From Candidatus Aminicenantales bacterium (lineage in GTDB: Bacteria > Acidobacteriota > Aminicenantia > Aminicenantales > UBA4085), in assembly GCA_049697115.1 (NCBI GenBank), contig JBAVVD010000095.1, forward strand, positions 15,797-79,796: a stretch of 64,000 bases of DNA, read 5' to 3'. Both the position numbers and the translations under genes were made by a program. A model generated the notes under the pieces. It did not search any database. It was not told the DNA's origin and was given only the letters and a program-made list of their open reading frames with translations. Shown here one piece after another: positions 11,512 through 59,307 of this stretch; positions within the stretch are counted from its first letter, which is position 1; the number at the start of each line of letters is the position of its first letter.

Positions 11512-11845
11512 TGATTAAGGGTATTTCCTTTTAGCCTTCGCGCAGAAACGCTCTTCGTTAAGCTCGGAATCGATACCTCCCATAACAAAATAATGATATT
11601 ATCGGCCTGGGATCAATGTCAAGGAAATGGCCGCGAAGAGGGTCATCCGGCCGCATCATCGTTCCGGACGACTACGAAATCCCCCAAAAGACGATAGCCC
11701 TCCCTCCCCCTCTTGAAATCACCTGTCCTTAATAATATTCCCCGCTCTCCTCGGCCGCCATCAAGGCGACCGGCTCGAAGACATGCGACGGAGGCGGCTT
11801 CTCGGCAACAAATGTCAACTTCAGAGAATCGATCACGGGTAGCGT
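11512..11845. repeat. Copy B (about 330 bp) of the intergenic repeat family
   Basis: Near-colinear match to 17830-18165 across the whole length (…gccgcatcatcg(t/g)tccggacga…cttgaaatcacctgt…ccccgctctcctc(a/g)gccgccatcaaggcgacc…acatgcgacggaggcggcttctcgg…) and to copy A over the first about 130 bp. Confidence 0.75.
11593..11622 (-). promoter_or_regulatory. Sigma-70-like promoter module in repeat copy B (TTGACA N18 TATCAT), facing the aminotransferase/flippase operon
   Basis: Minus-strand TTGACA at 11622-11617 and TATCAT at 11598-11593, 18-nt spacer. About 235 nt upstream of the start at 11350. Confidence 0.4.
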
Positions 11846-17829: not shown

Positions 17830-18165
17830 GGGTATGGGAATTTCCTTTTAGCCTTCGAGTAGGAACGCTCTTCGTTAATCTCGGAATCGATATCTCCCAT
17901 TACGAGATAATGATATTCGCGGACTGGGATCGATGTCAAGTACACGGAAATGACCACGAAGAAGGCCATCCGGCCGCATCATCGGTCCGGACGAACAAGA
18001 AATCCCCCTCAATAAAACCCCATCCGCTCTTGAAATCACCTGTTAAAAATACTCCCCGCTCTCCTCAGCCGCCATCAAGGCGACCTTGGTGAAGACATGC
18101 GACGGAGGCGGCTTCTCGGTCACAAATTGCAAGCGGCTGTTTTTATTGAGGACTGGAGAAGTGAA
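17830..18165. repeat. Copy C (about 335 bp) of the intergenic repeat family
   Basis: See copies A and B. Track ORFs inside it (17742-17969 -, 17910-18092 +, 18043-18243 -) are most likely non-coding, because copies differ by indels and mostly non-synonymous changes. Confidence 0.75.
17910..17939 (-). promoter_or_regulatory. Sigma-70-like promoter module in repeat copy C (TTGACA N18 TATCAT), facing the GT32-like/DegT/FemAB/OMT operon
   Basis: Minus-strand TTGACA at 17939-17934 and TATCAT at 17915-17910, 18-nt spacer. Confidence 0.4.
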
Positions 18166-19657: not shown

Positions 19658-20395
19658 GTGCATCCTGTTTTTACTTATAGCGGCGATCCCCACGAAAAAG
19701 TGGACCTCGCTTTCATCGCCGAGGGCTACGCGGCCGAGGATAAAGATAAGTTCAAAACCGACACGGACCGGTTCGCGGGATATCTCTTCGGTATCGAACC
19801 CTATAAAAGCGCCCGGGACAAGTTCAACGTCTATGGCGTATTACGTCCGTCCCCGGAACGGGCGATGGACGAGCCGCGCCAGGGCGTTTACAAGAAAACC
19901 GTCCTCAATGCCTCGTTCAACGCTTTCGACCTCGACCGTTATATGCTCATTGAGAAAGACCACCGGCTGCACGAGATCACAGCCCGGGTGCCGTACGACG
20001 CCATCATCGTCCTCGTCAACAGCAAGCGCTACGGAGGAGGGAGCATTGGCTTCGATTACTGCGTGACCACGGTCGACCATGCCTCAAGCCGACGGGTCTT
20101 CGTTCACGAGCTCGGCCATTCCTTCGCCGGTTTGGCCGATGAGTACTATGCCTCGGAGGTCGCCTACAACGATTTCTATCCCAAGGGGGAACACCCATTC
20201 AATCCCATGAAGGAATTTGAGAGTCACGAACCGGGGAATAAAAAAGATGATCCAATCGGCTTTGAAGCCGCTATTAGAGGCTTATTCAGGGGCTTCGATG
20301 GTCTAGAAAGATTGAGTAAATTTGATAGATATCCAAATCTGACGGTATATCCATTAGCCGTTTTTCGCGATATTTATCCAAAAGGAAAGGTCTAA
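19658..20395 (+). CDS. Zinc metallopeptidase, M64 (IgA-peptidase-like) family catalytic domain; signal peptide lies in another frame upstream (see findings)
   Basis: KVDLAFIAEGY…VHELGHSFAGLADEY (HExxH) plus downstream Glu/Tyr context typical of Peptidase_M64. Confidence 0.75.
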   Translation: MHPVFTYSGDPHEKVDLAFIAEGYAAEDKDKFKTDTDRFAGYLFGIEPYKSARDKFNVYGVLRPSPERAMDEPRQGVYKKTVLNASFNAFDLDRYMLIEKDHRLHEITARVPYDAIIVLVNSKRYGGGSIGFDYCVTTVDHASSRRVFVHELGHSFAGLADEYYASEVAYNDFYPKGEHPFNPMKEFESHEPGNKKDDPIGFEAAIRGLFRGFDGLERLSKFDRYPNLTVYPLAVFRDIYPKGKV

Positions 20396-21390: not shown

Positions 21391-22572
21391 GTGAGGAGGA
21401 ATTCCATGGAAAAGTTCATTTTTCTCGATAATGCCGCCACTTCCTTTCCAAAACCAGAAGAAGTCTATACATATATGGATCAATTTTATCGAAAATATGG
21501 AGTCAATCCGGGACGATCCGGATACGATATGTGCCTGGAAGTCGGAGAAATGGTGGAAGACACCCGGAAGATGCTGACGCGATTCTTTAACGGGAATGAT
21601 CCCAACCGGCTTTGTTTCTCTTACAATTCGACGGACGCCCTGAATCTCATCATTTTTGGAGTTCTCCAGCCCGGAGACCACGCCATCACAACCACTCTGG
21701 ATCATAATTCTGTCCTGAGACCTCTTTACCATTTGGAGAAATTCAACGGCGTGGAAGTCGACCACATCCCTTTCAACGGCCAGGGATTTGTCGATCCGGA
21801 CGACTTCCCCAAAAAATTCAAAAAAAACACAAAGCTTGTCATTATCAACCACGCTTCCAACGTAGTCGGCACGGTTCAACCCATCAAAGAAATCGGCCGG
21901 TACTGTCGGGAGCGAGGAATTATTTTTGCGATCGATGCCTCTCAATCATCAGGAAAAATTCCGATTGACATCGAAGAAGATTATATCGACATCCTGGCGT
22001 TCACCGGTCACAAATCCCTTCTTGGCCCTACGGGAATTGGAGGCCTTTATGTGAGAGAAGGCATTGAAATCAGGCATACTCGAGCCGGAGGCACAGGTGT
22101 CCGCTCCGCGGTCCGGACTCATCTTGAGGAGTATCCTTACCGGCTCGAATACGGAACGCTGAATGTCCTGGGTGTGGCGGGGCTTCATGCCGGCTTGAAA
22201 TGGATAGAAAACAAGGGTCTCACTGAAATCCATGCCTTGGAGATGAAGCTCCATATGCGGCTCGTCAGCGGGCTGAAAGAGATTGAGAATGTGACACTCT
22301 ACTGTCAGGAAGACCTCCGTGACCATATCAGCGTGATGTGCTTCAATATCAATTGATTAGAAGCCCGCGATACGGGCACTCTGCTCGATGTGGATTACTC
22401 TATTGCCAGTCGGACCGGCCTCCACTGCGCCCCTCTCATTCATGAGCAACTGGGGACGGATAAAATTCACGGCACCGTCAGATTTGGAGTGGGGCCGTTC
22501 AATACGGAAGAAGACATTTTCTCGGCCATCCAGGCTGTCAGGGAAATTGCCACTCTCAAATCGAAAAGTTAA
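21391..22572 (+). CDS. Class-V aminotransferase (cysteine desulfurase/SufS-CsdA-like), interrupted by an in-frame TGA at 22354-22356
   Basis: LDNAATSFPKP…, PLP region LAFTGHKSLLGPTGIGGLYV. The C-terminal SRTGLHCAPL…RFGVGPFNTEEDI continues in the same frame after the TGA (track ORF 22390-22572). A GAGGAGG RBS precedes the internal ATG near 21405. Confidence 0.7.
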
Positions 22573-22591: not shown

Positions 22592-22912
22592 CTAGACACA
22601 CCCATCCGGTTTGGGAAGCCCGGCGACTTTACAAGCTCCTTTGGCCGGGCCTGAAGGGAAAAGGTTATAGATATATTTCAAGGCAAAGCCCGTTGTCTGA
22701 CAGATTTTTCTGACAATTGGCGCGAGGTCCTTTTCCAGATAATAATTTCTGATGTAATGGATAACGGCCCAATGGTCTTCAGTGAGCTGGTCGATACTCT
22801 CTTCCAGCCGTGCCAGGACCTCCGCGACATCTTTATTCCATTCTTCCGGACGGACTAAAAATCCCTCTGCGTTAATCTCAATCTTTTTATCTTTGACATC
22901 AATCTCCGGCAT
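22592..22912 (-). CDS. dsrC: DsrC/TusE-family sulfur-relay protein (two-cysteine DsrC type)
   Basis: 106 aa ending …LFPSGPAKGACKVAGLPKPDGCV. Conserved penultimate Cys plus a second Cys 10 residues upstream, the DsrC arrangement. TusE has Thr at the upstream position. Confidence 0.75.
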   Translation of the reverse strand: MPEIDVKDKKIEINAEGFLVRPEEWNKDVAEVLARLEESIDQLTEDHWAVIHYIRNYYLEKDLAPIVRKICQTTGFALKYIYNLFPSGPAKGACKVAGLPKPDGCV

Positions 22913-23265: not shown

Positions 23266-24015
23266 ATGAAAAAAATATGGACCTGGCGGCTATCAATGTT
23301 TCTGATCCTCATCTCCGCTTCCTTTCTTGTCTATACCCTTCACTATTCCATCTTCCATGACCTGCATCACATTTTTATCTATCTCATCGGTGATATCGGA
23401 TTTCTCTTTCTGGATGTCCTTCTGGTTATTCTGCTGATTGAACGCGTCCTGGCCCAGAGAGAAAAACGGGCGATCATGAAAAAGCTGAATATGGTGATCG
23501 GCACTTTCTTCAGCGAAGTGGGGCTGGAGTTCTTGAAGAAAATCTCTGAGTTCGTGCACAACTCGGAAAACCTCGCTCGAAGCCTCTCCATCAGCCCTCA
23601 CTGGGACAAAAGAGACTTTCAAAAAGCCATGCAGGCGGCCCAAAATTTCTCCTACGAGATTCGCGTCTCTCCACCCGAACTGCTCGCCCTTCGCCAGTTC
23701 CTCCATGAGCAAAGGCCTTTTTTGCTCCGCCTCTTGGAAAATCCGAATTTGCTCGAACACGACCGCTTCACGGACCTGCTCTGGGCCGTGTTCCATTTGG
23801 CCGAGGAACTGGACTTTCGCGGCGATCAACTGGAACACCTTCCCGAAAGCGATTCCCAGCATCTGGCCGGAGATCTCAAGCGGGCTTATTCTCAAATCAC
23901 AAGCGAATGGCTGGCCTACACAATGCACCTTAAACAGAGCTATCCCTTCCTGTTTTCACTGGCCGCCCGGATTAATCCTTTCAATCTCAGGCCATCTCCG
24001 ATTATCCAGTCCTGA
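23266..24015 (+). CDS. Hypothetical membrane-anchored protein
   Basis: Two N-terminal hydrophobic helices, remainder soluble. GGAGG RBS 8 nt upstream. No recognisable family motif. Confidence 0.35.
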   Translation: MKKIWTWRLSMFLILISASFLVYTLHYSIFHDLHHIFIYLIGDIGFLFLDVLLVILLIERVLAQREKRAIMKKLNMVIGTFFSEVGLEFLKKISEFVHNSENLARSLSISPHWDKRDFQKAMQAAQNFSYEIRVSPPELLALRQFLHEQRPFLLRLLENPNLLEHDRFTDLLWAVFHLAEELDFRGDQLEHLPESDSQHLAGDLKRAYSQITSEWLAYTMHLKQSYPFLFSLAARINPFNLRPSPIIQS

Positions 24016-25368: not shown

Positions 25369-26556
25369 ATGTCTCGATTAAATAGAAGAAACTTTATCGC
25401 CGCCTTCACATCCGGTGTTGTCGGACTGGGGCTGCCTAAAAGTATCAAAGCAGAGACAACAAAACTCGCTTCTCTCCAGAACCAGACCTCAACTCCCAGG
25501 ATCCGGAAGTTCAATCTCCTCGGAACAACCGGCCTGAAGATCTCTGATGTGAGCTGCGGCGCTATATCCCTTTTTGAGCCCAATGTCCTGAGGTATGCCT
25601 ATGAGTGCGGAGTAAACTATTTTGACACGGCCGAGGGCTATCTCCGGATGAAGGGCGAAGTTTACGTCAGCCAGGGATTGAAAGAGGTCAGAGACAAGGT
25701 CATCATCACCACCAAACATCCTTATGACTTCGACCAAAAAATTGATAAGGCCTCCATCCTCCGCCGGGTGGAAGCCAGTCTCAAGCGCCTCCAGACCGAT
25801 ACTGTTGATATCGCCATGGTCCATAACATCTCCGACCTTTCTCCCCTCCTCCAGAGTGAGGAAATGCTTTCCGCCTACGCACAGCTCAAACAGGAAGGCA
25901 AAATTCGCTTCACTGGATTCTCCACCCACAACCCCAAGCTCACGCTCAGGCAGGCCCTGGAAACAGACTTTGCCCAGGTCATCCTGTTTATTTACAGCCA
26001 TATGGAAGGCAGGGAAATCGAGCCACTGATCAAGGCCGTCCGGCAAAAAGGAATCGGCACTGTGGCCATGAAAATTTTTGCCGGAGGCATGCAGGACAAT
26101 CTCAAGGCTTTTATCAGCCCGGAAGTCAGCTATTCCCAGGCGGCCATTCGGTGGGTGATGACGAATCCGGATGTGGACTGCTGCATTCCCACCATGAGTA
26201 GCTATTCCCATGTGGAGGAGTATGTGGCGGCCTCAGGTCAATCGCTGAAAAGAGCGGATTTAAATGCTATTGCCAGCTATAGGAAACAGGCCGGACCTCT
26301 CTACTGCCGCGTGAGCTGCCAGAAATGCCTGCCCGCCTGCCCGCATCAGGTCGCCATCAATGAAGTCCTCCGCTATGCCATGTACTTTGAAAACTACAAG
26401 ATGGAAAAGGATGCCGTCAGCCACTATGCGGATCTCGACAACAGCCGGAAACCCTTGATCTGCTCTTCCTGTTCCGGCTACTGCGAGAGCTCCTGCCCTT
26501 ACGGGCTTAAAATCAAGCAGCGGCTCATCCATTCCCACGAGATTCTCACGGGATAA
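25369..26556 (+). CDS. Tat-exported aldo/keto reductase with C-terminal Fe-S (ferredoxin-like) cysteine cluster
   Basis: Twin-arginine motif RRNFIAA, an AKR core (…GVNYFDTAEGY…), and a C-terminal tail CRVSCQKCLPACP…CSSCSGYCESSCPYG. Confidence 0.7.
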   Translation: MSRLNRRNFIAAFTSGVVGLGLPKSIKAETTKLASLQNQTSTPRIRKFNLLGTTGLKISDVSCGAISLFEPNVLRYAYECGVNYFDTAEGYLRMKGEVYVSQGLKEVRDKVIITTKHPYDFDQKIDKASILRRVEASLKRLQTDTVDIAMVHNISDLSPLLQSEEMLSAYAQLKQEGKIRFTGFSTHNPKLTLRQALETDFAQVILFIYSHMEGREIEPLIKAVRQKGIGTVAMKIFAGGMQDNLKAFISPEVSYSQAAIRWVMTNPDVDCCIPTMSSYSHVEEYVAASGQSLKRADLNAIASYRKQAGPLYCRVSCQKCLPACPHQVAINEVLRYAMYFENYKMEKDAVSHYADLDNSRKPLICSSCSGYCESSCPYGLKIKQRLIHSHEILTG

Positions 26557-28492: not shown

Positions 28493-31003
28493 ATGGCGCG
28501 AACAGAACCACGAACACTGGCAATGATGATGAACCACCGAAAGGTGTATTTTCCGGAAGGCGTCACCGTCCTCCGGACGGCCGAGCTGAACGGCGTGGAC
28601 ATTCCCTCTCTCTGTTCCCACAAAGATCTTTCCCCCTACGGCGGATGCCGATTGTGTATGGTGGAAATCGAGGGAATGCGCGGCTATCCTTTAGCCTGCA
28701 ACACGATAGCTCAGGAAGGAATGAAAGTCCTGACAGATACAGATATGCTGCGGGAACTCCGGAAAGAAATCTTGAAACTTATCCTCTGCGAGCATCCCTC
28801 GAGCTGCCTGGTGTGCGGAGAAAAAACCGAGTGTCAGGATTATCAAGGAACGATCCGGAAGACCGGCGTAACGACGGCGTGTCGATTTTGCCCAAATGAC
28901 GGCCAATGCGAACTGCAGAGCCTGGTTGAAAAAATCGGTGTGACGGAAATCGACCATCCCATACTTTATCATGGCTATGAGCCTGAGCACGACGATCCCT
29001 TTTACGACAGGGACTACAATATCTGTATTCTCTGCGGCCGGTGTGTTCGGATGTGTCAGGAAGTTCGGGGGACCGCGGTGCTTGCCTTCACCTCGCGGGG
29101 TCCTCAGGTCAAGATTGCCCCGGCCTTTGGCCGAAGCCATCGGGAAGCGGGATGCGAATTCTGCGGGGCATGCGTGGATGTCTGCCCGACAGGCGCCCTT
29201 GTGGATAAGGCCTCCAAGTGGGACGGCCGGCCGGATGGATTTCATGTTTCCACATGTCCGTTCTGTGCGCTGGGATGTCAGATTGAGCTGTTTTATAAAA
29301 ACCGCAGGCTGTCCAAAGCCAAAGCCCATATGGATCCGGAAGTCAATGACGGACAGCTCTGTGTGAAAGGACGCTTCTGTCTGCCGGAAGTCACTCACCA
29401 TTTCGAACGGGCAAAAAAGCCCATGCTCCAAAAAGGGGATTATTTCCGGGAAGTCTCCTGGGAGGAAGCCTTGGAAAAAGTGGCCGAAGAGCTCAAAGGA
29501 ATTCAATCGGATGAGTTTCTCATGCTGGTTTCTCCGGATCTCACCAACGAGAGTTTGTATGCCGCTCAAAAATTCGTTCGGGACGGCCTGGAAAGTCCGA
29601 ACATCGACTCCACGGCGAGACTGGAACTTGCAGGCGGATTGGGATTTTGGTCAAAACTGTTCTCATTGCCCATCTCCATCAAGAATATCGCCAGAGCCGA
29701 TGTGATCCTTGCCGTCGGACTCGACAGCCGGTTCAATTTTTCGGTGGTCGGGACAAAGGTTCGTCGAGCGCTCGATGTGGGTGCCCAATTGGTGACCATC
29801 GATCCTCTCGACAGCAATCTGGCCCGCTATACCGATCACTGGCTCCGTCCTGTGCCGGGCCAGGAAGGACGGCTTCTGAAGTTTTTCGCCGATCGTCTGG
29901 CCGGCCGAAACAACAATCCTTCCTCTGTCGCTCAAGAAACATCCGTGGATATTCCACTTTTGGAACGGGCGTTCGCAATTCTTTCTTCCGGCGACGATTT
30001 GACGGTGATTATCGGCCCCCGGATATTTCATTATGAAAACAGCGAATCTTTCGTGGACGGATTAATGAGCCTGGCCAAACGCCCGAATACGAATTTCATT
30101 CCCCTTTTCTTCGGCGCCAATACGCGCGGGGCCCTTGAGTTGGGCGTATTTCCGGAACTCGGTTCAGATGGAACTTCCCGCTTTGGGAAGGGATCAGGTT
30201 TGTCCGAAATAATCAACGGATCAAAGCGTTATAAAGTGATCTATCTGGTCGGCGATGTCCCGTTTTTTGAAAGGCCGAACTGCGATTTCTTAATCGTTCA
30301 GGATATTTATCTGCCGCCCTTCAAAGTCGATGCATTTCTTCCGGCATCCTCTTTTGCGGAGGCCGGTGGGACTTTTGTGAATATTGAAGGACGGATTCAG
30401 GAGATCGTCCAGATCGAAGATCCGCCCGAAGGCCAGGTAACGGGATTTATGCGTCCCGATTGGCTGATCTTTTCTGAGCTGGCCAATGTTCTCAATGTTC
30501 ATCCGCTGAATTACAAAACTTGGAAGGATGTCTTCAAGGAAATTCAAAAATCCATGCCGAATTTTCCAGAACGGATCAACCGGAAGCCCCGACGGATGAA
30601 CGCTTTCGATGATCCGGCCATCCACAAATCAACCGATGGACAAAAGCCGGACGGAGATTTCTGGATGGTGGCCGAACCGGGCGGCTACCGCCATCGAGGG
30701 ATCGATATCTCGTCGAAAGTCGGAGGTTTGAGCGAATTGGCCCTGGAAGAAGGATTCCGAATGCACCCCGAAGACATCGAGTCCCTTGGTTTGAAAAGCG
30801 GCGATCCGATCACTCTATCGCTCGGCAAGAGTAAGCGGCGCGTCACGGGCACTGTCAAATCAGACATCGAATGTCCGAAAGGGGCAATTTTCTTCTCCCG
30901 GCCAGTTATCTTGGGCGGTCTGAAACATCGACGTGAACTTCTTCCCTTATACATTCTCCAAAAAAATCCGATCCGCGTTCACATCTTGAAGACGGCGACC
31001 TGA
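28493..31003 (+). CDS. NuoG/formate-dehydrogenase-alpha-like Fe-S and molybdopterin-fold subunit lacking the catalytic Sec/Cys-His pair
   Basis: N-terminal 2Fe-2S (CSHKDLSPYGGCRLC), a His-x3-Cx2Cx5C cluster (HPSSCLVCGEKTEC) and two further Cx2Cx2Cx3CP motifs. The FDH-like domain begins TCPFCALGCQIELF…DGQLCVKGRF. At the position aligned to E. coli FdhF …ARVUHGP the sequence is …ARLELAG (no Cys/Sec or His). A C-terminal molybdopterin-dinucleotide-binding-like barrel follows. Confidence 0.7.
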   Translation: MARTEPRTLAMMMNHRKVYFPEGVTVLRTAELNGVDIPSLCSHKDLSPYGGCRLCMVEIEGMRGYPLACNTIAQEGMKVLTDTDMLRELRKEILKLILCEHPSSCLVCGEKTECQDYQGTIRKTGVTTACRFCPNDGQCELQSLVEKIGVTEIDHPILYHGYEPEHDDPFYDRDYNICILCGRCVRMCQEVRGTAVLAFTSRGPQVKIAPAFGRSHREAGCEFCGACVDVCPTGALVDKASKWDGRPDGFHVSTCPFCALGCQIELFYKNRRLSKAKAHMDPEVNDGQLCVKGRFCLPEVTHHFERAKKPMLQKGDYFREVSWEEALEKVAEELKGIQSDEFLMLVSPDLTNESLYAAQKFVRDGLESPNIDSTARLELAGGLGFWSKLFSLPISIKNIARADVILAVGLDSRFNFSVVGTKVRRALDVGAQLVTIDPLDSNLARYTDHWLRPVPGQEGRLLKFFADRLAGRNNNPSSVAQETSVDIPLLERAFAILSSGDDLTVIIGPRIFHYENSESFVDGLMSLAKRPNTNFIPLFFGANTRGALELGVFPELGSDGTSRFGKGSGLSEIINGSKRYKVIYLVGDVPFFERPNCDFLIVQDIYLPPFKVDAFLPASSFAEAGGTFVNIEGRIQEIVQIEDPPEGQVTGFMRPDWLIFSELANVLNVHPLNYKTWKDVFKEIQKSMPNFPERINRKPRRMNAFDDPAIHKSTDGQKPDGDFWMVAEPGGYRHRGIDISSKVGGLSELALEEGFRMHPEDIESLGLKSGDPITLSLGKSKRRVTGTVKSDIECPKGAIFFSRPVILGGLKHRRELLPLYILQKNPIRVHILKTAT

Positions 31004-31063
31004 AAAATAAGAATATATATTCATGGAAACGCGATGGGTTCGGCCGATGGATGGAGGACAGGA

Positions 31064-31897
31064 ATGTATGAAATCATTGAACGACGGATGATTGTTCCGA
31101 ATTTGCACGAATTCAAAGTGAAGGCTCCGGCCGTTGCCGAAACCGTGAAACCCGGCCACTTCATCATCGTCCGGGCGGATCAATATGGCGAGCGTATTCC
31201 TTTGTCCGTCGCGGACTGGGATCAGGAAGCCGGCACGGTGACATCCATTTTTATGCAGGTGGGCGGATCCACCGGCAAGCTGGCTCGTCTGAAATCCGGC
31301 GATACCATTCCAACATATGTTGGGCCTTTGGGGAAAGAAACCGTGATCGATAATTTCGGCACGGTTCTTTGCATCGGCGGATGCTACGGGATCGGATCGA
31401 TCTACCCCATCGCACGGGCGCTGAAGGAAGCCGGGAATAAAGTTTATGTCCTGCTGGAAGCCCGAAGTTCGTTTCTCCTGTACTGGCAGAAGAGGTTCAC
31501 CGGAGTCTCGGATGAAGTATTTGTTATCACCCGGGATGGCACTGCGGGGGAAAAAGGTCATGTGAGCAAGATCCCTGAGTTGATTGAACACGCAGGAATC
31601 ATTCCCCATCTGGTCATCGTGAACGGGTGCACGTTCCTGATGATGCGGGTTTCTCAGGTGACAAAGCCTTTTGGATGGAAAACGATCGTCAATATGAATC
31701 CGATAATGATCGATGGAACGGGGATGTGCGGAGTCTGTCGACTCTCGGTCGGAGGAAAAATGAAGTTCGCCTGCGTCGATGGGCCCGATTTTAACGGCCA
31801 TGAAATCGATTGGGCAGAATTCCTGGCGCGGCGCAAGAGTTACAACCCGGAAGAGGTCGATCCGCTCCGCCGTTCGAGCTGCCGGTCTCATTTCTGA
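31064..31897 (+). CDS. NfnA/SudB/PyrK-like FAD plus 2Fe-2S oxidoreductase subunit
   Basis: Ferredoxin-NADP-reductase-like fold with C-terminal CGVCRLSVGGKMKFACVDGPDF. Start placed at ATG 31064 after a GGAGG RBS (track ORF begins at 31034). Confidence 0.7.
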   Translation: MYEIIERRMIVPNLHEFKVKAPAVAETVKPGHFIIVRADQYGERIPLSVADWDQEAGTVTSIFMQVGGSTGKLARLKSGDTIPTYVGPLGKETVIDNFGTVLCIGGCYGIGSIYPIARALKEAGNKVYVLLEARSSFLLYWQKRFTGVSDEVFVITRDGTAGEKGHVSKIPELIEHAGIIPHLVIVNGCTFLMMRVSQVTKPFGWKTIVNMNPIMIDGTGMCGVCRLSVGGKMKFACVDGPDFNGHEIDWAEFLARRKSYNPEEVDPLRRSSCRSHF

Positions 31898-31935
31898 TTC
31901 GATGGAAGACGCCCGCGCAGAGGAGGTTGGCCAGA

Positions 31936-33354
31936 GTGAGTGAGGAAAAACAGGAAAAGAAAAAATTGGATCTGAATCGTCGGTCCATGCCGAAACAGAA
32001 TCCATGGGAGCGGGTCAAGAATTTTGACGAAGTCGCCCTGGGATACTCCGCCGCGGTCGCTGTGGAAGAAGCCCGTCGCTGTTTGCAATGTCCGAAGCCG
32101 CTCTGCAATCAAGGGTGTCCAGTAGGGATTGATATCCCCGCATTCATTAAATGTATTGTCGACGGGGACTTCGGCTCCGGAATCAAAAAAATCAAGGAGA
32201 CCAATGCCCTTCCGGCGATTTGCGGCCGGGTCTGTCCTCAAGAAGAGCAGTGCGAAAAGACGTGCGTCCTGGCCAAAAAGAAGGCCCCGATCGCCATCGG
32301 CCGGCTGGAGCGGTTTCTTGCCGATTGGGAAGCGGCGGAAGGAAAAATCGAAGTTCCGGATATGGCTCCCAAAACCGGGAAGAAGGTAGCTGTCGCCGGA
32401 GCGGGCCCCGCAGGCATAACCGTCGCCAACGACCTCATCATCCTCGGACATGATGTGACCATCTTCGAAGCTCTGCATGAATGCGGCGGCGTCTTGATTT
32501 ACGGCATTCCGGAGTTCAGGCTTCCCAAAGCCATCGTGAACCGTGAAGTGGAATACGTCAAGAGCCTGGGAGTGAAAATCCATACGGATTTCGTCGTGGG
32601 AAAAACCAAGTCCGTCGACCGACTCCTTGAGGAATACGATGCCCTCTTTATCGGCTCGGGCGCCGGACTTCCCTGGTTCATGGAAATCCCCGGCGAAAAC
32701 CTCAATGGCGTCTTTTCGGCCAACGAATACCTCACCCGGGTGAATTTGATGAAGGGTTTTCGATTTCCGGAGTATGAGACGCCCGTGAAACGTCCCCCTC
32801 GAGTGGCGGTTATCGGAGGCGGTAACGTGGCCATGGACTCGGCGCGAACAGCCGTCCGGCTGGGCGCTGATGAGGCCCATTTGGTCTACCGCCGCAACAA
32901 GACGGAATTGCCCGCGCGCGCCGAGGAAGTGGAGAATGCGGAAGAAGAAGGAGTGATTTTCGATCTTCTCACATTGCCTGTGCGTCTCATCGGCGATGCC
33001 AACGGCTGGATCAAAGAGATGGAATGCCTGAAAATGGAATTGGGGGAACCCGATGAATCGGGACGGCGAAGACCGGTTCCCATTAAAGGGTCAAATTTTC
33101 TCATGCCGTTTGATGCGGTCGTCATCGCCATCGGTAACAGCCCGAATCCGATGATTCCCATGACCACTCCTGGATTGGAGATCAGCAAAAAAGGGGGCAT
33201 CGTGACTCATCCGGAGACGGCCCGGACCTCAAGACCAGATATCTGGGCCGGCGGGGATATTGTCAGAGGCGCGGCGACGGTGATCAGCGCGATGGGTGAT
33301 GGGAGGATTGCCGCGTCATCCATACATAAATGTCTCATAAACAAAGGAATTTAG
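31936..33354 (+). CDS. NfnB/SudA/GltD-like NAD(P)H-dependent oxidoreductase subunit (2x[4Fe-4S] + FAD + NAD(P)-binding)
   Basis: CLQCPKPLCNQGCPVGIDIP and CGRVCPQEEQCEKTC clusters, then GxGxxG VAVAGAGPAGI and a second dinucleotide fold. Probable GTG start at 31936 after GAGGAGG (track ORF begins at 31810 and overlaps nfnA). Confidence 0.8.
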   Translation: MSEEKQEKKKLDLNRRSMPKQNPWERVKNFDEVALGYSAAVAVEEARRCLQCPKPLCNQGCPVGIDIPAFIKCIVDGDFGSGIKKIKETNALPAICGRVCPQEEQCEKTCVLAKKKAPIAIGRLERFLADWEAAEGKIEVPDMAPKTGKKVAVAGAGPAGITVANDLIILGHDVTIFEALHECGGVLIYGIPEFRLPKAIVNREVEYVKSLGVKIHTDFVVGKTKSVDRLLEEYDALFIGSGAGLPWFMEIPGENLNGVFSANEYLTRVNLMKGFRFPEYETPVKRPPRVAVIGGGNVAMDSARTAVRLGADEAHLVYRRNKTELPARAEEVENAEEEGVIFDLLTLPVRLIGDANGWIKEMECLKMELGEPDESGRRRPVPIKGSNFLMPFDAVVIAIGNSPNPMIPMTTPGLEISKKGGIVTHPETARTSRPDIWAGGDIVRGAATVISAMGDGRIAASSIHKCLINKGI

Positions 33355-33448
33355 GCCGCATGGAACTTATGGTTATATGCTTATTAACGATGTTCAGGAC
33401 AGGCCAAAAGTCTGGCTCATGGATTTCATGCGCAGCTCAGGAGCACAC

Positions 33449-33793
33449 ATGACATTGCACGAGATCAAAGAGATTCTCCAATGTGAGGTTCTTGCCGGAG
33501 AAGAGAATCTTGCGATAGACGTCCAACAGGTCGTGGCCTCAGATGGAATGAGTGAAATCCTGGCGTTTGCCAGATCCAAAGAGCTGATGATTACCGGTCT
33601 GACCAACATCCAATCCATCCGGACGGCGGATGTCGCCGGCGTCAGCGCCGTCATTTATTGTCGAGGAAAACGTCCCGATAAGGCCGTGATCGAATATGCC
33701 AAAAAGAAAGCGATTCCGATCCTGATGACGAAGATGGTCATGTTTGATATCTGCGGAATTCTTTATGCCAGAGGCCTCAAGGGCGTCTCATAA
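33449..33793 (+). CDS. Small DRTGG-domain-like protein (second copy)
   Basis: MTLHEIKEILQCEVLAGEENL…MITGLTNIQSIRTADVAGVSAVIYCRGKRPDKAVIEYAKKKAIPIL is colinear with the 28093 protein. Start chosen at the internal ATG with a GGAG RBS (track ORF begins at 33377). Confidence 0.4.
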   Translation: MTLHEIKEILQCEVLAGEENLAIDVQQVVASDGMSEILAFARSKELMITGLTNIQSIRTADVAGVSAVIYCRGKRPDKAVIEYAKKKAIPILMTKMVMFDICGILYARGLKGVS

Positions 33794-34230
33794 TGGTCAT
33801 GGAACTACTACGAGAACGATTCGAAATTCAGGGAAGGAATTTCGATAAGGCCGGCGAGATCGCCACCGAAATCAAAGTGATTCTTAAAGATCTCGGCATT
33901 CACGCCGCGAATATCCGGCGTTCCGTGGTCGTGGCGTTTGAGGCCGAGATGAATGTGGTCATGTTTGCCGACCGGGGAACACTGACCCTCATCCTGACCG
34001 ATGAAGAAGTCTGCCTGGAGATTACAGACGAGGGGCCGGGAATCCCGGACATTGAGCTGGCGTTTCAGCCCGGATATTCCACGGCCTCAGACGAAATGCG
34101 CTTAATGGGTTTTGGCTTTGGTATGGGACTGCCGAATATGAAAAAGAACTCCGACGCGTTTCAAATCGAATCAGAGGTAGGAAAGGGGACGTCGGTCTTT
34201 GCCAGAATAAAATTAAATGCCAATGACTGA
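33793..34230 (+). CDS. Histidine-kinase-like ATPase (anti-sigma-factor/Ser-kinase-like, HATPase_c) small protein
   Basis: G1 box EITDEGPGIPD and G2-like GFGFGMGLP. About 145 aa, as in accessory genes of NADH-dependent hydrogenase operons. Confidence 0.6.
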   Translation: MVMELLRERFEIQGRNFDKAGEIATEIKVILKDLGIHAANIRRSVVVAFEAEMNVVMFADRGTLTLILTDEEVCLEITDEGPGIPDIELAFQPGYSTASDEMRLMGFGFGMGLPNMKKNSDAFQIESEVGKGTSVFARIKLNAND

Positions 34231-35512
34231 ATTAAAGCACGGATTTAAAATCGACACGGACAAGTGCACAGGAAGAATGCACTGCATGCGCGCCTGTCCG
34301 ACGCGGGCCATCCGGGTGAAAAACGGCAAAGCGCGTCTGATCCAGGCGCTCTGCATCGACTGCGGCTCATGTCTGCAGGCATGCCCCACGGGAGCCATCA
34401 CGGCAACGACGATCACCTTTGCCGAACTGGACAGGTTTAAGTTCAAGGTTGCGGTGGCCTCGCCAGCGCTGTTCACCCAATTCGGTATCCATATTTCACC
34501 CGCCCAAGTCGGCAGAGCTCTGTTGGACCTTGGATTTGACGCCGTCTGGGAATACGCCGTCGACATTGAGCTGATCGACCAGGCGATTATGGATTCCGTC
34601 AAGAAATGGCCCGGCCCATTTCCCCTGATCTCCAGCTCCTGTCCCGTTGTCGTCCGATTGGTCCAGGTCGCGTACCCCAGTATGGTCGAACAGCTCATTC
34701 CTATCGAATCCCCGCGAGAAATTGCCGGCCGGGAACTGAAACGGAAATACTCCCAGGAGTTGGGCCTGGATCCGGAAGACATTGCCGCGATATATATCAC
34801 GCCCTGCCAGGCTAAAACGATTTCCATCCTTCAACCCGCTGAGGGCGTAGAAAGTTATCTGGATGGATCGGTCGGCATTTCTGAAATTTATAATGACATT
34901 CTTTATAAACTGCGAAAAGATGCGCATAATCAAGAATCCCCGAAAGACTTTTCCATCTCCGGCGAATTGTTTCACGGAGGAGTGATGGAAGGGGAATTTC
35001 CCCGCCTGTCCCGGGAGCATTATCTTCCGCTGACCGGCCTGACGGATATCATTAAAGTTTTCGACGACATTGAAATGGGAAAAATCAGAAATATTGAATT
35101 TTTGGAATGCCATGCCTGCCAGGGGGGATGCATCGGGGGAAACCTGACGGTCGAAAATCTTTATGTGGCGCGCAGCAAAAATCTCCATTTGATCGCCAGT
35201 ATCACGCCGCCCGATTCGACCTTCAAGAATGAGGTTGAACGGCGTTATGCCATTGAAAATTTTTCATTAAGACGACCTTTGAAACCCCGGATCATTGAAG
35301 AGGGCGTCTCGGAACTGCGCGAGCGCGTCACAAGACGAAAGAGAGCGGATGAACTTTTGAAAAGCCTTCCCCTGCTGAATTGCGGCTTGTGCGGCGCCCC
35401 GACGTGCAAGAACCATGCCGAAGACGTGGCCGCTCTCAGGGCGGACTTGAGGGAATGCGTTTTTCTCTCGCCCGACCGGATTGACCAATTGAGAAGAATC
35501 CATAAAAAATAA
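34217..35512 (+). CDS. [FeFe]-hydrogenase H-cluster-domain protein of the putative sensory/regulatory type (HydS-like, no PAS domain)
   Basis: Two N-terminal ferredoxin motifs (CTGRMHCMRACP, CIDCGSCLQACP). H-domain motifs L1 SSSCPVVV (single Cys instead of TSCCPxW), L2 TPCQAK, L3 EFLECHACQGGCIGG. C-terminal Cx2Cx4Cx16C (CGLCGAPTCKNHAEDVAALRADLREC). Confidence 0.75.
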   Translation: MPMTELKHGFKIDTDKCTGRMHCMRACPTRAIRVKNGKARLIQALCIDCGSCLQACPTGAITATTITFAELDRFKFKVAVASPALFTQFGIHISPAQVGRALLDLGFDAVWEYAVDIELIDQAIMDSVKKWPGPFPLISSSCPVVVRLVQVAYPSMVEQLIPIESPREIAGRELKRKYSQELGLDPEDIAAIYITPCQAKTISILQPAEGVESYLDGSVGISEIYNDILYKLRKDAHNQESPKDFSISGELFHGGVMEGEFPRLSREHYLPLTGLTDIIKVFDDIEMGKIRNIEFLECHACQGGCIGGNLTVENLYVARSKNLHLIASITPPDSTFKNEVERRYAIENFSLRRPLKPRIIEEGVSELRERVTRRKRADELLKSLPLLNCGLCGAPTCKNHAEDVAALRADLRECVFLSPDRIDQLRRIHKK

Positions 35513-35537
35513 TCGCTCCACGAAGGAGAAGAAAGAG

Positions 35538-36038
35538 ATGACGGCTAAGTTATCACGCGGAGGTCCGGACAACACCCATGAGAGGCGAAAGGATCTGATT
35601 CCTCTTTTACAAAAGGTCCAGAAGACGGATGGATATCTCTCTCCGGAATCCGTAGAGACCATTTCCCGGAAGCTCAAGGTTTCGGAAAATGAAATTTACG
35701 GAGTGGCCACATTCTACGCGCAATTCCGATTTCAACCTCCGGGGAAGTACAATATCAAAGTTTGCCTGGGGACTGCTTGCCATGTCGGAGGCGGCCATAA
35801 TTTTATGGAGGTCATGAAAATAGATAAGAACATCGGCCACGGGGAGACAACGCCGGACGGGACATTCAGCCTTGAACGAGTCGCCTGTTTGGGTTGTTGT
35901 GCCCTGGCTCCGGTGGTCGTCGTCAACAACGAGGTCCATGGAAAAATGAACCGTGTCACATTTATGAAACTCCTGGAATCCCTGGACCCTTCCCGGAAGG
36001 TTGAAGAACCGCCGGAAACATCGAAATCGCCGGAATGA
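35538..36038 (+). CDS. NuoE/HndA-like thioredoxin-fold [2Fe-2S] subunit
   Basis: CLGTACHVGGG…CLGCCALAP signature of the 24-kDa subunit family. Confidence 0.8.
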   Translation: MTAKLSRGGPDNTHERRKDLIPLLQKVQKTDGYLSPESVETISRKLKVSENEIYGVATFYAQFRFQPPGKYNIKVCLGTACHVGGGHNFMEVMKIDKNIGHGETTPDGTFSLERVACLGCCALAPVVVVNNEVHGKMNRVTFMKLLESLDPSRKVEEPPETSKSPE

Positions 36039-36136
36039 CTCACCGGCCGTAACCGTATACCGATGAGCACATCAATGCCAGTCAGAAAAAGTCAAGCGGA
36101 TCGGAGGCGTATCAGAGATCCGATTAAGGAGCGGCC

Positions 36137-38005
36137 ATGAGCAGTGATCATCCGAAAATCGACACACGGCCCGGAGGAGACGGCAGGGAGGCGACCCTTG
36201 GGAATAAAATCCGGGTTCTTGTCTGCGAAGGCACCGGATGTGTGTCTTCGAAATCGCCGGACATTCGAGCCGCTCTCGAAAAGGCCGTGCGTCAAATCGG
36301 CTTGAGTGAAAAGATTGAAGTGGGATTTACCGGCTGCCACGGCTTCTGCCAGATAGGCCCTATCGTGGTCGTCGAACCCGAGGGGATTTTCTATTGCAAA
36401 GTGAACCCCAGGGATGCCAAAGATATTGCCGAATCCCACCTCGTCGGCGGGGAACCGGTCAAACGCCTTTTTTACCGCCACCCGGTGACCAAAGAGAGTG
36501 TCCCTTATTATCGGGACATCATGTTCTATAAAAAACAGCAGCGAGTGATCCTGCGCAACTGCGGCAAGATCAACCCGGAAAAAATATCGGATTATGAAGC
36601 TCTGGGCGGTTATCAAGCGCTCCGAAAAGCCGTTCTCAAGATGGGCCCTGAACAGGTTATCGAAGAGGTTCGTCGTTCCGGCCTGCGCGGACGCGGCGGG
36701 GCCGGCTTCCCAACCGGAGTCAAATGGAATTTTTGCCGGAAGCAGCCCGGGGACATCAAGTATGTCATTTGCAATGCCGACGAAGGCGATCCTGGAGCCT
36801 TTATGGATCGCAGTATTCTTGAGGCCGATCCCCATACGGTAATTGAAGGGCTTATTATCCTTGGCTTTGCCATCAACGCCCGCCGGGGTTTTTTCTACTG
36901 CCGCGCGGAATACCCTTTGGCCGTCAAAAGGGTAGGCATCGCCCTTGAGCAGGCGCGCCATAAAGGCTTTCTGGGGAAAAACATCTTCGGATCGGGCTTC
37001 GATTTCGATGTCGAAATATTTGAAGGAGCCGGGGCGTTCGTCTGCGGAGAAGAAACCGCTCTGATCCGTTCCATCGAGGGTTCAAGGGGAATGCCGCGCA
37101 GCCGCCCGCCCTTTCCGGCCGAAAAAGGACTCTGGGGGAGGCCCACTGTCATCAACAACGTCAAGACTCTGGCTTCCGTCCCCGTCATTATCAATCAGGG
37201 AGCCGACTGGTTTGCATCCATCGGGACGGAAACCAGTAAAGGAACGGCCGTCTTTGCGCTGACGGGAAAGATCGCCAATTCCGGACTCGTCGAAGTGCCA
37301 ATGGGGGCTCCCCTGTCACACATCATTTACGATATCGGAGGAGGAATTCCTAATAAGAAAACCTTCAAAGCCGTCCAGACCGGCGGGCCGTCGGGAGGAT
37401 GTCTGCCGGCCACACAGCTCGAACTTCCGATTGATTTCGATTCCTTGCAGAAAGCGGGTTCGATGATGGGCTCCGGAGGTCTGGTTGTGATGGATGATGA
37501 TACGTGCATCGTGGATGTGGCGCGGTTCTTCCTCTCCTTCATCCAGAGCGAATCATGCGGCAAATGCGTCCCCTGCCGGATTGGCACTCGTCTTATGGTG
37601 GACATTTTGGAGAAAATCATGGCCGGAAAGGGAACGGAACAGGACCTGGTGCGACTTGAAAAGCTGGCTAACCTGGTGAAGTTCGGCTCACTCTGCGGCC
37701 TCGGACAGACCGCTCCCAATCCCGTCCTCACAGCGCTCCGATACTTCCGGTCCGAATTTATCGCCCATATCGTCGACAAACGATGCCCGGCGGCCGTCTG
37801 CCGCGAACTCGTCACGTTTCGCGTGATTCCAGAACGGTGCACGGGCTGTCAGTTGTGCGTTAAGGTCTGTCCGACGAAAGCCATTTCCGGACCCCGATCT
37901 CAACCGCATAATCTCGACCAGACCAAATGCATCAAATGCCGCGCGTGTTATGAAATTTGTCGGTTCGATGCCATCGCCGGCGAGGCCATCGTCATCGTAT
38001 CTTAG
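36137..38005 (+). CDS. NuoF/HndC-like NAD(P)H-binding flavoprotein subunit with N-terminal 2Fe-2S domain and C-terminal 2x[4Fe-4S]
   Basis: GLRGRGGAGFPTGVKW (FMN/NADH site), the 4Fe-4S N3-type CxxCxxC…C region, and C-terminal CTGCQLCVKVCP / CIKCRACYEICRF ferredoxin motifs. Confidence 0.85.
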   Translation: MSSDHPKIDTRPGGDGREATLGNKIRVLVCEGTGCVSSKSPDIRAALEKAVRQIGLSEKIEVGFTGCHGFCQIGPIVVVEPEGIFYCKVNPRDAKDIAESHLVGGEPVKRLFYRHPVTKESVPYYRDIMFYKKQQRVILRNCGKINPEKISDYEALGGYQALRKAVLKMGPEQVIEEVRRSGLRGRGGAGFPTGVKWNFCRKQPGDIKYVICNADEGDPGAFMDRSILEADPHTVIEGLIILGFAINARRGFFYCRAEYPLAVKRVGIALEQARHKGFLGKNIFGSGFDFDVEIFEGAGAFVCGEETALIRSIEGSRGMPRSRPPFPAEKGLWGRPTVINNVKTLASVPVIINQGADWFASIGTETSKGTAVFALTGKIANSGLVEVPMGAPLSHIIYDIGGGIPNKKTFKAVQTGGPSGGCLPATQLELPIDFDSLQKAGSMMGSGGLVVMDDDTCIVDVARFFLSFIQSESCGKCVPCRIGTRLMVDILEKIMAGKGTEQDLVRLEKLANLVKFGSLCGLGQTAPNPVLTALRYFRSEFIAHIVDKRCPAAVCRELVTFRVIPERCTGCQLCVKVCPTKAISGPRSQPHNLDQTKCIKCRACYEICRFDAIAGEAIVIVS

Positions 38006-38370: not shown

Positions 38371-38446
38371 TGGCTCCTCGGGCAGGACTCGAACCTGCAA
38401 CCTATTGGTTAACAGCCAACCGCTCTGCCAATTGAGCTACCGAGGA
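38371..38446 (-). tRNA. tRNA-Asn (anticodon GTT), CCA encoded
   Basis: Reverse complement folds as a canonical cloverleaf: acceptor TCCTCGG/CCGAGGA, D-arm GCTC-AATTGGCA-GAGC, anticodon stem GTTGG/CCAAT with loop CTGTTAA, T-arm GCAGG-TTCGAGT-CCTGC, discriminator G, then CCA. Very close to E. coli tRNA-Asn. Confidence 0.85.
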
Positions 38447-51338: not shown

Positions 51339-52196
51339 TTATGGCTTTGAAAGGGGCTGGAACTCGTATTTATTGGCCGCTTTCCGGACACGGCCGAAAT
51401 AATGAGCCGAATCGTGCACAAAGGCCATCACCCAGTCTTCCTCAATCGCTTGGTCGTAGAACCGTTTTTTAGTCTTCAGGGTTTCCAGAGGGTAAAGGTC
51501 GTAGCTCATGACATAGGCCAGGCGGACATGGGCCGATGTGGGAACCAGGTCACCGAGATAAAAAAGGACCCTTCCCATGGATTTGATCTTGACGCACTGG
51601 TGATGGGCGGTGTGGCCCGGAGACAGAACAACCTCCACTCCATCGGCGATTTCCGTATCGCCATCAACCAGAAGGAGCTGGCCGGCTTTCTCCAGAGGGA
51701 GAAAATTCTCCCGGATGTAACTGGCCTTGTCCCGCTCATTGGGATTGAGGGCATCCTCCCATTCCCCTTTCTGGATGACATACCGAGCCTGAGGGAAAGT
51801 GGGGACGATTATCCCATCCTCGCCCTTCATCGTGTTCCCGCCGCTGTGGTCAAAATGGAGATGGGTGTTGACGACGAGGTCGATATCTTCCGGCCGGACT
51901 CCGAGCTCGCGGAGAGACGGAACCAGCCCGGGCTCCTGTTCCACGGAATACAGGCCTGAAAACTTCTGGCCGAATTTGGACCCTATGCCTGTTTCAATAA
52001 GAATCAAGTCTTTGGGCGTCCGTATAAGAAGGGAATTCAGAGCCAGCCGGATTCTGTTGGCACTGTCCGAGGGATACTTCTTTTCCCACAGGATTTTGGG
52101 CACAACACCGAACATGGCTCCCCCATCCAGGTGGAAATAACCGTCGCTGATTCCATAGACTTTCAGGTCCCCCAGAGAGAATTCTTCGATTCTCAT
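51339..52196 (-). CDS. MBL-fold metallo-hydrolase
   Basis: HxHxDH motif NTHLHFDHSGGN. Start overlaps the nuoI stop by 4 nt. Confidence 0.7.
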   Translation of the reverse strand: MRIEEFSLGDLKVYGISDGYFHLDGGAMFGVVPKILWEKKYPSDSANRIRLALNSLLIRTPKDLILIETGIGSKFGQKFSGLYSVEQEPGLVPSLRELGVRPEDIDLVVNTHLHFDHSGGNTMKGEDGIIVPTFPQARYVIQKGEWEDALNPNERDKASYIRENFLPLEKAGQLLLVDGDTEIADGVEVVLSPGHTAHHQCVKIKSMGRVLFYLGDLVPTSAHVRLAYVMSYDLYPLETLKTKKRFYDQAIEEDWVMAFVHDSAHYFGRVRKAANKYEFQPLSKP

Positions 52197-52711
52197 TTCA
52201 GGAGTCTGTCAAGGTCGAGCACCAGGTCCGGACGGGAATATTGGGCCAGTTCGATAGTTCCCGTATCCATCCGGATGGCATCCTCCGGACAGGCCTCCAC
52301 GCAGAAACCGCAAAAACAGCACCGGCTGATGTCGATCGTAAACCGGGCGGGATACTTCTGGATTTCGGGGTCAGGATCTTCGACCGCTTCCACATAGATG
52401 CATTCCGAAGGACAGACCGTGACGCAAAGCATGCAGCAGACGCAGCGGGGCTTGCCGTCGTCTCTCTTCATGAGTCGGTGAAGGCTCCTGTGCCTGGAAG
52501 CCAGCTCCTTCTTCTGTTCGGGATACTGAATGGTCACGGCGCCTTTCCTTTTTGTCTTGATGCCGAAGACATTCAGCGTGTGAAAGAACATGTTGACGAA
52601 AAAATGCCTGGCGGTGATCCAGCTTCCCCTGATGAGTTCCAGAAAATATCCGAGTGCTTTGAACATGTTATCTCGCCAATAAAATAATTCCTGTTCCGAT
52701 AATATTGACAA
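52193..52711 (-). CDS. nuoI: NADH-quinone oxidoreductase subunit I
   Basis: Two Cx2Cx2Cx3CP motifs (CVCCMLCVTVCP, CCFCGFCVEACP). Confidence 0.85.
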   Translation of the reverse strand: MSILSEQELFYWRDNMFKALGYFLELIRGSWITARHFFVNMFFHTLNVFGIKTKRKGAVTIQYPEQKKELASRHRSLHRLMKRDDGKPRCVCCMLCVTVCPSECIYVEAVEDPDPEIQKYPARFTIDISRCCFCGFCVEACPEDAIRMDTGTIELAQYSRPDLVLDLDRLLK

Positions 52712-55296: not shown

Positions 55297-55302
55297 TGTC
55301 CG

Positions 55303-56565: not shown

Positions 56566-56569
56566 TTTA

Positions 56570-57043
56570 TTATTCCAGGCTCTTCAGCAGTTGATCTATC
56601 TTTTTTTTATCGAGGTTGCCGTAATAGTCCAAATTAACCATCATGCAGGGAGCCTGCTCACATGCGCCCAGACACTCCACTTCGGAGAGCGTGAATTTCC
56701 GGTCCGCTGTTGTCTCGCCGATCTCAATCCCCAGTTTTTCCTTCAAGTAATCGATGAGCCTCTCGGCTCCAAGAAGCGAACAGCTCAAGTTGGAGCAGAC
56801 CTGAATGTGGTATTTCCCGAGAGGCTTCTGATGAAGCATGGTGTAGAATGTCACCACTTCCCTGATTTGAATCGGCGGAATGCCCATCAGGCGAGCTACC
56901 CATTGTTCTTCTTCCGCGGATATCGATCCCTTTTCCCGCTGGACCAGATGGAGGACAGGGAGAAGCGCCGCTTCCTTTTCCGGATAGCGCGCGACAAGCT
57001 CTTCGACCTTTTTTTTCAATTCCGGAGAATATTCAGGGCTCAT
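56570..57043 (-). CDS. nuoE: NADH-quinone oxidoreductase subunit E
   Basis: CSNLSCSLLGAERL…CLGACEQAP 2Fe-2S signature. Confidence 0.85.
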   Translation of the reverse strand: MSPEYSPELKKKVEELVARYPEKEAALLPVLHLVQREKGSISAEEEQWVARLMGIPPIQIREVVTFYTMLHQKPLGKYHIQVCSNLSCSLLGAERLIDYLKEKLGIEIGETTADRKFTLSEVECLGACEQAPCMMVNLDYYGNLDKKKIDQLLKSLE

Positions 57044-58365: not shown

Positions 58366-58366
58366 T

Positions 58367-59304: not shown

Positions 59305-59307
59305 CCT

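Follow-up and report, generated by a model that had tools for sequence, protein, structure and literature searches.

Which partners does a DsrC protein with two cysteines serve in a genomic region without dsrAB? The question is raised by a stretch of 64,000 nucleotides (the window, 64 kb) from a Candidatus Aminicenantales bacterium (contig JBAVVD010000095.1, assembly GCA_049697115.1), which shows a dsrC-family gene convergent with a gene encoding a cysteine desulfurase-like enzyme (Table 1). The two-cysteine DsrC is widely taken as a marker of DsrAB-based sulfur respiration. Comparison with related loci assigns the window protein, by its sequence, to a distinct and widespread DsrC subfamily, which ends in PKPDGCV (D-type), and not to the canonical type. 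This D-type DsrC may work without DsrAB, as persulfide acceptor of the desulfurase, and be recycled by a DsrK-like module; we give this reading about an even chance.

The window open reading frame (ORF) is confirmed as a real two-cysteine DsrC-family gene, as the initial annotation, made from the DNA letters alone, had stated. Its ATG is preceded by an AGGA-type ribosome-binding site and its translation ends in ...SGPAKGACKVAGLPKPDGCV, where the last residue but one is Cys105 (CysA); the second cysteine, Cys94 (CysB), stands 11 positions before it, so that 10 residues separate the two; in the alignment this spacing is identical to that of Cys93 and Cys104 of D. vulgaris DsrC. The Pfam family DsrC (PF04358) matches residues 6-106 with an E-value of 8.6e-36 (123 bits, cutoff 24.9) and TIGR03342 gives 112.3 bits (cutoff 53.5). 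The nearest proteins show 74-79% identity and all of them contain 106 aa; the named ones belong to Candidatus Aminicenantes metagenome-assembled genomes (MAGs), and an exact look-up of the window sequence returned no record. The initial annotation had also set the protein apart from the single-cysteine TusE, and the similarity scores bear this out, placing it clearly on the DsrC side: the solved DsrCs of P. aerophilum, Desulfomicrobium, A. fulgidus and D. vulgaris give 104-108 bits (46-50% identity) and the DsrC of A. vinosum gives 87.5 bits, against 28 bits for the TusE-like structure 7SYB. The TusE equivalog NF008562 reaches 74.9 bits, below its cutoff of 191, and CysB, which is replaced in TusE, is present. 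Identity to the DsrCs of canonical dsr loci is 57-59%. The DsrC motif of the DiSCo classifier is AGLPKPTGC, with one mismatch tolerated or both cysteines sufficing (PMC8477390); given this tolerance, the window protein, which shows AGLPKPDGCV with Asp for Thr, would still be called DsrC.

Profile searches (Pfam and NCBIfam on the long ORFs and on 55 small intergenic ORFs) and tblastn for the Dsr proteins, covering the whole 64 kb, found no dsrAB, dsrD, dsrMK, dsrEFH/tusBCD, tusA, apr or sat, in agreement with the earlier statement that dsrAB is missing from the window, and Pfam found no rhodanese among the 55 small intergenic ORFs. Families DsrE/F/H, TusA and MnmA were found neither in the window, small ORFs included, nor among the recurrent neighbours of the gene in relatives.

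The related loci comprise the best 80 relatives with their flanking regions, with one genome per GTDB species, and a near-identical contig (L001), 81 in all. Their synteny was established by tblastn and ORF clustering; desulfurase genes were counted within 5 kb of dsrC and dsr genes within 10 kb. Fifty-eight DsrCs, the window protein and 57 relatives, end in PKPDGCV, with the C-terminal consensus ...GACK(V/L/I)AGLPKPDGCV, while PKPTGCV (T-type) is the ending at the remaining 24 loci and in each of the four solved reference DsrCs. The Asp or Thr at this position, four residues from the C-terminus, splits the 58 sequences from the 28 canonical ones without exception, and three further alignment columns discriminate between the two types. 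A neighbour-joining tree built without the last eight columns also joins all 58 D-type sequences in one bipartition. The D-type proteins are otherwise close to the DsrCs of sulfite reducers (D. vulgaris 2V4J chain C, A. fulgidus 1SAU and P. aerophilum 1JI8) in family, length and cysteine spacing, and both share the arm motif GPAKGACKxAGLPKPxGCV. Among the best 120 matches to the window DsrC all 120 end in PKPDGCV, as do 119 of the best 120 matches to a Holophaga D-type protein; among the matches listed, CysA is kept in 239 of 239 D-type proteins and CysB in 237 of them. The D-type is found in Aminicenantes (four complete chromosomes among them), Ca. Saccharicenans, Zixibacteria, Ignavibacteria, Latescibacterota, Eisenbacteria and Holophagaceae.

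The two types also differ in gene neighbourhood. An orthologue of the window desulfurase (57-79% identity) lies within 5 kb of dsrC in 53 of the 58 D-type loci. In 42 of the 58, two genes encoding a membrane protein (M-like) and an iron-sulfur protein (K-like) adjoin dsrC, usually between it and the desulfurase gene. Four D-type loci show the M/K-like genes and no desulfurase, being cut by contig ends, and one more (L034) is on a 3-kb contig. Neither the M/K-like genes nor the desulfurase gene was found beside dsrC in the 24 T-type loci. With canonical Dsr queries taken from locus L071 (DsrA with 578 bits to TIGR02064 and DsrM with 517 bits to NF038037), at least one of dsrA, dsrB, dsrD, dsrN, dsrT, dsrM, dsrK and dsrJ is present in 13 of the 24 T-type loci, whereas dsrA, dsrB, dsrD, dsrN, dsrT, dsrM and dsrJ are present in none of the 57 related D-type loci, where the K-like gene alone matches DsrK (24-30%).

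These comparisons bear on the explanation that the window encodes an ordinary DsrC, with DsrAB and DsrMK encoded elsewhere in the genome of an organism that reduces sulfite or sulfate or disproportionates sulfur. Both catalytic cysteines at the canonical spacing, together with the identity to solved DsrCs and to those of canonical dsr loci given above, agree with it, and many sulfate reducers have dsrC away from dsrAB. Besides, dsrD has been reported in an Aminicenantes MAG (Dalcin Martins et al., 2018), and one study assigns dsrAB/asrA collectively, without detail, to Desulfobacterota and Aminicenantia MAGs. However, the Asp-for-Thr replacement and the three other columns differ from every dsr-locus and solved DsrC examined, canonical dsr genes lie near none of the D-type genes and near about half of the T-type ones, and no T-type DsrC from an Aminicenantes-labelled genome was found among the best 80 relatives. 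The 950 dsrAB-carrying genomes (AnnoTree/GTDB) of Diao et al. (2023) include Zixibacteria and Thermoanaerobaculia, but no Aminicenantia, Holophagae, Ignavibacteria or Geothrix, so that the D-type occurs in lineages without known dsrAB, and a dsrAB-bearing MAG once labelled 'Aminicenantes' was later moved to Thermoanaerobaculia. The Aminicenantes MAG of Dalcin Martins et al. (2018) has a two-cysteine dsrC but no dsrAB. The indirect evidence points to the absence of dsrAB elsewhere in the D-type genomes, and an ordinary DsrC is very unlikely. The initial annotation had taken the two cysteines to define a bona fide substrate of DsrAB; this is not supported for a subfamily whose gene has desulfurase and HmcEF/TmcCB/DsrMK-like partners and never shows dsrAB within 10 kb or lies beside dsrD, dsrN or canonical dsrMKJOP. 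According to Stockdreher et al. (2012, PMC3397948) the second cysteine occurs only in DsrAB organisms, with a few exceptions, to which the D-type clade would add a large one.

The module encoded beside dsrC in relatives contains two subunits. The M-like protein, of about 200 aa (194-216 aa), shows two invariant His, a weak likeness to HmcE, TmcC and NarI, and no DsrM match. The K-like protein, about 450 aa long, is of the Fer4/CCG kind and has two CX2CX2CX3C motifs ([4Fe-4S]) and one CXnCCGXnCX2C motif with five invariant Cys; the ECGH cysteine is present in 31 of 31 K-like proteins. Its NCBIfam scores are 277-326 bits for TmcB (cutoff 735), 297-321 for HmcF (cutoff 750) and 235-247 for DsrK (cutoff 400), which make it a relative of DsrK, HmcF and TmcB that is a member of none of these families, and its locus that of a separate two-subunit module. 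According to Barbosa et al. (2024, PMC10861901), DsrK, HmcF and TmcB have in common a single CCG motif and the (G/T)ECGH cysteine, a combination probably essential to the reduction of disulfides or trisulfides, and in a 2026 cryo-electron microscopy preprint the DsrC arm inserts into DsrK beside the ECGH cysteine. The K-like protein of relatives has the hallmarks of DsrK, HmcF and TmcB, whose complexes (DsrMK, HmcEF and TmcBC) in sulfate reducers reduce the DsrC trisulfide or carry electrons to it, but the module falls short of all equivalog cutoffs, has a short membrane subunit and shows no cytochrome c or DsrJOP partners.

In the cultured Geothrix sp. 21YS21S-2 (CP132910.1; L085 10001-13413) the genes encoding DsrC, the membrane protein, the CCG protein and the desulfurase form, in this order, a single co-directional operon: dsrC abuts the membrane protein gene, the next two junctions overlap, and a gene encoding a MocR/GntR-type regulator lies divergently upstream of the operon. 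The 64-kb window shows no M/K-like module by tblastn and no canonical DsrM or DsrK. Several relatives, including two complete Aminicenantes chromosomes, also have no module within 10 kb while their dsrC and desulfurase genes are intact. In one relative genome the module is 5 kb upstream, and it may therefore lie elsewhere in the genome from which the window comes.

Taken together, these loci suggest how a D-type DsrC could work without DsrAB. The TIGR01977 desulfurase would take sulfane sulfur from L-cysteine and form a persulfide on Cys105, in the flexible C-terminal arm of DsrC, and Cys94 would resolve this persulfide to a disulfide or trisulfide. The DsrK-like protein, tied to the quinone pool via the membrane subunit, would then reduce DsrC, with release of sulfide and regeneration of the carrier. 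The net result would be the use of cysteine-derived sulfur as an electron sink, or a controlled handling of sulfide and persulfide. A precedent for the loading step is the persulfuration of A. vinosum DsrC at its penultimate Cys by IscS and cysteine in vitro (PMC3397948). In A. vinosum the DsrEFH sulfurtransferase also loads a DsrC persulfide at the penultimate Cys (PMC3397948), but the window shows no DsrEFH and no DsrAB to oxidise the product. The nuo operon of the window indicates that a quinone-linked chain exists, which is circumstantial support for the proposed cycle. That sulfane sulfur from cysteine, or from a related thiol, is carried on D-type DsrC and reduced to sulfide with quinol, in a cycle not described before, is a tentative proposal that we consider possible but rather doubtful.

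Several points weigh against a DsrAB-independent role. The bootstrap value of the split between D-type and T-type is weak (75 of 200), which is due to the short length of the protein (about 100 residues). In Aminicenantes, dsrC and the desulfurase gene are convergent and not co-transcribed. With no M/K-like genes in the window and a stop codon within its desulfurase gene (see below), the proposed cycle cannot be completed from the window, and both which way the electrons run and which sulfur source is used in the cell are guesses. To these are added the Zixibacteria entry among the dsrAB-carrying genomes, the collective assignment of dsrAB/asrA to Aminicenantia, and the fact that dsrAB elsewhere in the D-type genomes is excluded only indirectly.

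The close linkage to a cysteine desulfurase gene also fits a second explanation, a biosynthetic relay similar to that of TusE, in which the desulfurase would load DsrC and DsrC would hand the sulfur on to an enzyme of thiolation, with tRNA 2-thiouridine or another thio-cofactor as the product and no role in energy metabolism. The E. coli relay IscS-TusA-TusBCD-TusE is a precedent, in which a DsrC-family protein downstream of a desulfurase is loaded at its penultimate Cys with sulfane sulfur derived from cysteine (PMC3397948); many members of the D-type are labelled 'tRNA 2-thiouridine synthesizing protein E' by the Joint Genome Institute, and the window shows no reductase module. However, the D-type sequence is not TusE-like by the NF008562 and 7SYB scores given above, and it keeps the second cysteine, which is dispensable for TusE, in the 237 of 239 members listed. 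Genes tusBCD/dsrEFH, tusA and mnmA are neither in the window nor recurrent beside the gene, the desulfurase is of the TIGR01977 type and not IscS, and the recurrent partner is a membrane-anchored protein of the DsrK/HmcF/TmcB type, without a role in known thiolation relays. A relay of this kind is unlikely. Of the two alternatives offered in the initial annotation, a DsrC awaiting its reductase elsewhere in the genome or a TusE-like relay protein that has kept its second Cys, the second comes closer, insofar as the protein is seen as a relay protein with a kept second cysteine; its sequence, however, is not TusE-like, and the usual partner in relatives is a DsrK-type reductase and not TusBCD or MnmA.

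The gene convergent with dsrC, 19 bp from it, encodes a cysteine desulfurase-like enzyme (class-V aminotransferase) of the TIGR01977 type, and the earlier description of a convergent desulfurase-like pyridoxal phosphate (PLP) enzyme is correct. The gene as called in L001, a contig with 99.98% identity, starts at the position that corresponds to the ATG at 21406. A scan for terminators and promoters around the dsrC-desulfurase pair found nothing above the shuffled expectation, and the spacer shows no separate terminator-like hairpin. The protein contains the PLP-Lys motif FTGHKSL and the catalytic-Cys loop RTGLHCAP, which lie on opposite sides of a premature in-frame TGA that is absent from the initial annotation. 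Aminotran_5 of Pfam matches the N-terminal part with an E-value of 2.4e-78 and the C-terminal part with 27 bits, and TIGR01977 matches in two pieces of 365 and 66.5 bits, against 448.7 bits for the intact orthologue of L001 (cutoff 377); the best related models are SufS and CsdA. In the systems SufS-SufE and CsdA-CsdE a desulfurase is served by a small dedicated Cys-bearing acceptor. The pair of the window resembles them in its genetic coupling of a group-II-like desulfurase (RTGLHCAP loop) to a small, dedicated Cys-bearing protein, but here the acceptor has the DsrC fold and not that of SufE or CsdE, and the usual further partner is a quinone-linked reductase and not a set of Fe-S scaffold genes.

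The contig L001 (Logan SRR27973968), assembled from a metagenome, aligns collinearly with 11,206 bp of the window and differs from it at only two bases, both inside the dsrC-desulfurase pair: one at 22354, where the window has TGA and L001 has GGA, and the other at 22715, where Ile66 of DsrC is Met in L001. Two differences in one gene pair may reflect relaxed or diversifying selection, or errors, but two events are only suggestive. TGA is the ordinary stop codon of 20 of the 51 window genes. Its reading as a sense codon (Gly under code 25, or selenocysteine) was considered and ruled out, because TGA ends these genes and L001 has GGA; the TGA is therefore a nonsense allele or an error and not a recoded codon, and it may stem from an error in a single read or in the consensus, or mark a strain variant of very recent origin.

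This codon brings in a third explanation, that of local decay, according to which dsrC is left over in this genome beside a desulfurase pseudogene, after loss of the reductase module. It agrees with a premature stop before the catalytic-Cys loop, in a genome where TGA is a normal stop, with the lack of M/K-like genes in 64 kb, and with the concentration of the sole two differences from L001 over 11.2 kb in this gene pair. Against it, dsrC is intact with all the hallmarks of the family, L001 has GGA and an intact desulfurase gene, and the several genomes without a module within 10 kb, among them the two complete Aminicenantes chromosomes, keep both genes intact. Local decay is very unlikely.

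A D-type DsrC that serves a desulfurase and a DsrK-like module, if this is its role, would imply a small respiratory or electron-sink pathway across Aminicenantia, Holophagae (including the cultured Geothrix), Ignavibacteria, Zixibacteria, Latescibacterota and Eisenbacteria, and a two-cysteine dsrC would be no reliable marker of sulfite or sulfate respiration. The D-type accounts for 'orphan' dsrC calls in metagenomes, such as those of Aminicenantes (PMC6081815), and it calls for caution in deducing sulfate or sulfite reduction from dsrC, with a one-residue diagnostic at hand (PKPDGCV or PKPTGCV). A use of DsrC/DsrK chemistry independent of DsrAB is testable, as a cultured Geothrix isolate exists. 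The occurrence of a two-cysteine dsrC without dsrAB in Aminicenantes was already known in 2018; searches of an open-access library found no description of the PKPDGCV subfamily, of its near-universal linkage to TIGR01977 desulfurase and HmcEF/TmcCB/DsrMK-like genes, or of its presence in a cultured Geothrix.

Table 1. Coordinates of the dsrC locus in the window, and of the M/K-like gene pairs in related loci (L022, L027, L002 and L085).
Feature	Position	Strand	Remarks
dsrC-family gene	22592..22912	(-)	106 aa; PKPDGCV (D-type) subfamily; Cys94 and Cys105 present; stop TAG 22592-22594
EF2568-type (TIGR01977) cysteine desulfurase-like PLP enzyme	21406..22572 (longest ORF from GTG 21391)	(+)	convergent with dsrC
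Premature in-frame TGA in the desulfurase gene	22354..22356	(+)	between PLP-Lys region and catalytic-Cys loop; GGA (Gly) in L001
Spacer between the two convergent stop codons	22573..22591		19 bp
249-aa membrane protein	23266..24015	(+)	divergent from dsrC; MJ1433_N/MJ1433_C on the L002 orthologue (precomputed Pfam); no Pfam match on the window copy
M/K-like gene pair	L022 9710-11703; L027 10152-12341; L002 3202-5261; L085 10324-12199		next to D-type dsrC

The gene encoding the 249-aa membrane protein is found again in 11 Aminicenantes loci; in most of these it lies 160-590 bp upstream of dsrC, while in L006 it is 7.3 kb away; it is uncertain whether it is part of the dsrC unit. Further along the same strand, at 25369-26556 (+), a gene encodes a fusion of an aldo/keto reductase with a 4Fe-4S dicluster domain at its C-terminus, and several Aminicenantes loci (L002/L006, L008 and L018) have an orthologue of this gene at a distance of a few kb from dsrC. 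On the other side of the dsrC-desulfurase pair, an M64 peptidase-like ORF of 245 aa at 19658-20395 (+) matches positions 5-180 of the 302-position Pfam profile; the ORF has the same 245 aa in L001, so that it is a short form and not a local truncation.

The survey of the window also shows an exopolysaccharide cluster, PEPCK, dnaKJ and nuoA-I. An intergenic element of about 300 bp is present in two direct copies, at 11516-11813 and 17833-18127, with about 85% identity and indels of 6, 6 and 3 bases. The copies flank the part of the polysaccharide cluster that contains glycosyltransferase and methyltransferase genes, and each of them lies in a divergent intergenic region; they show no Rfam match and share no long ORF. 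The cluster at 28493-38005 contains genes encoding an FdhA/NuoG-like molybdopterin enzyme with an N-terminal 2Fe-2S domain, NfnAB/SudAB-like proteins (31034-33354), small proteins with DRTGG and HATPase domains (33377-34227), a HydA-like protein with a C-terminal Fe-S domain, and NuoE-like and NuoF-like proteins, and looks like a locus of the electron-bifurcating hydrogenase or formate dehydrogenase type. The only RNA gene that the Rfam scan detected in the window is a tRNA-Asn (GTT) at 38371-38446 (-). An unbroken run of nuo genes, from nuoA to nuoI, occupies 52193-59691 (-), followed next downstream by genes encoding a metallo-beta-lactamase-fold protein and a malic enzyme; nuoJ-N are not in the window. 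A gene encoding a sulfatase-like protein at 59797-61440 (+) adjoins one encoding a radical SAM/SPASM-type protein at 61885-63471 (-), and the two are possibly an anaerobic sulfatase-maturase pair.

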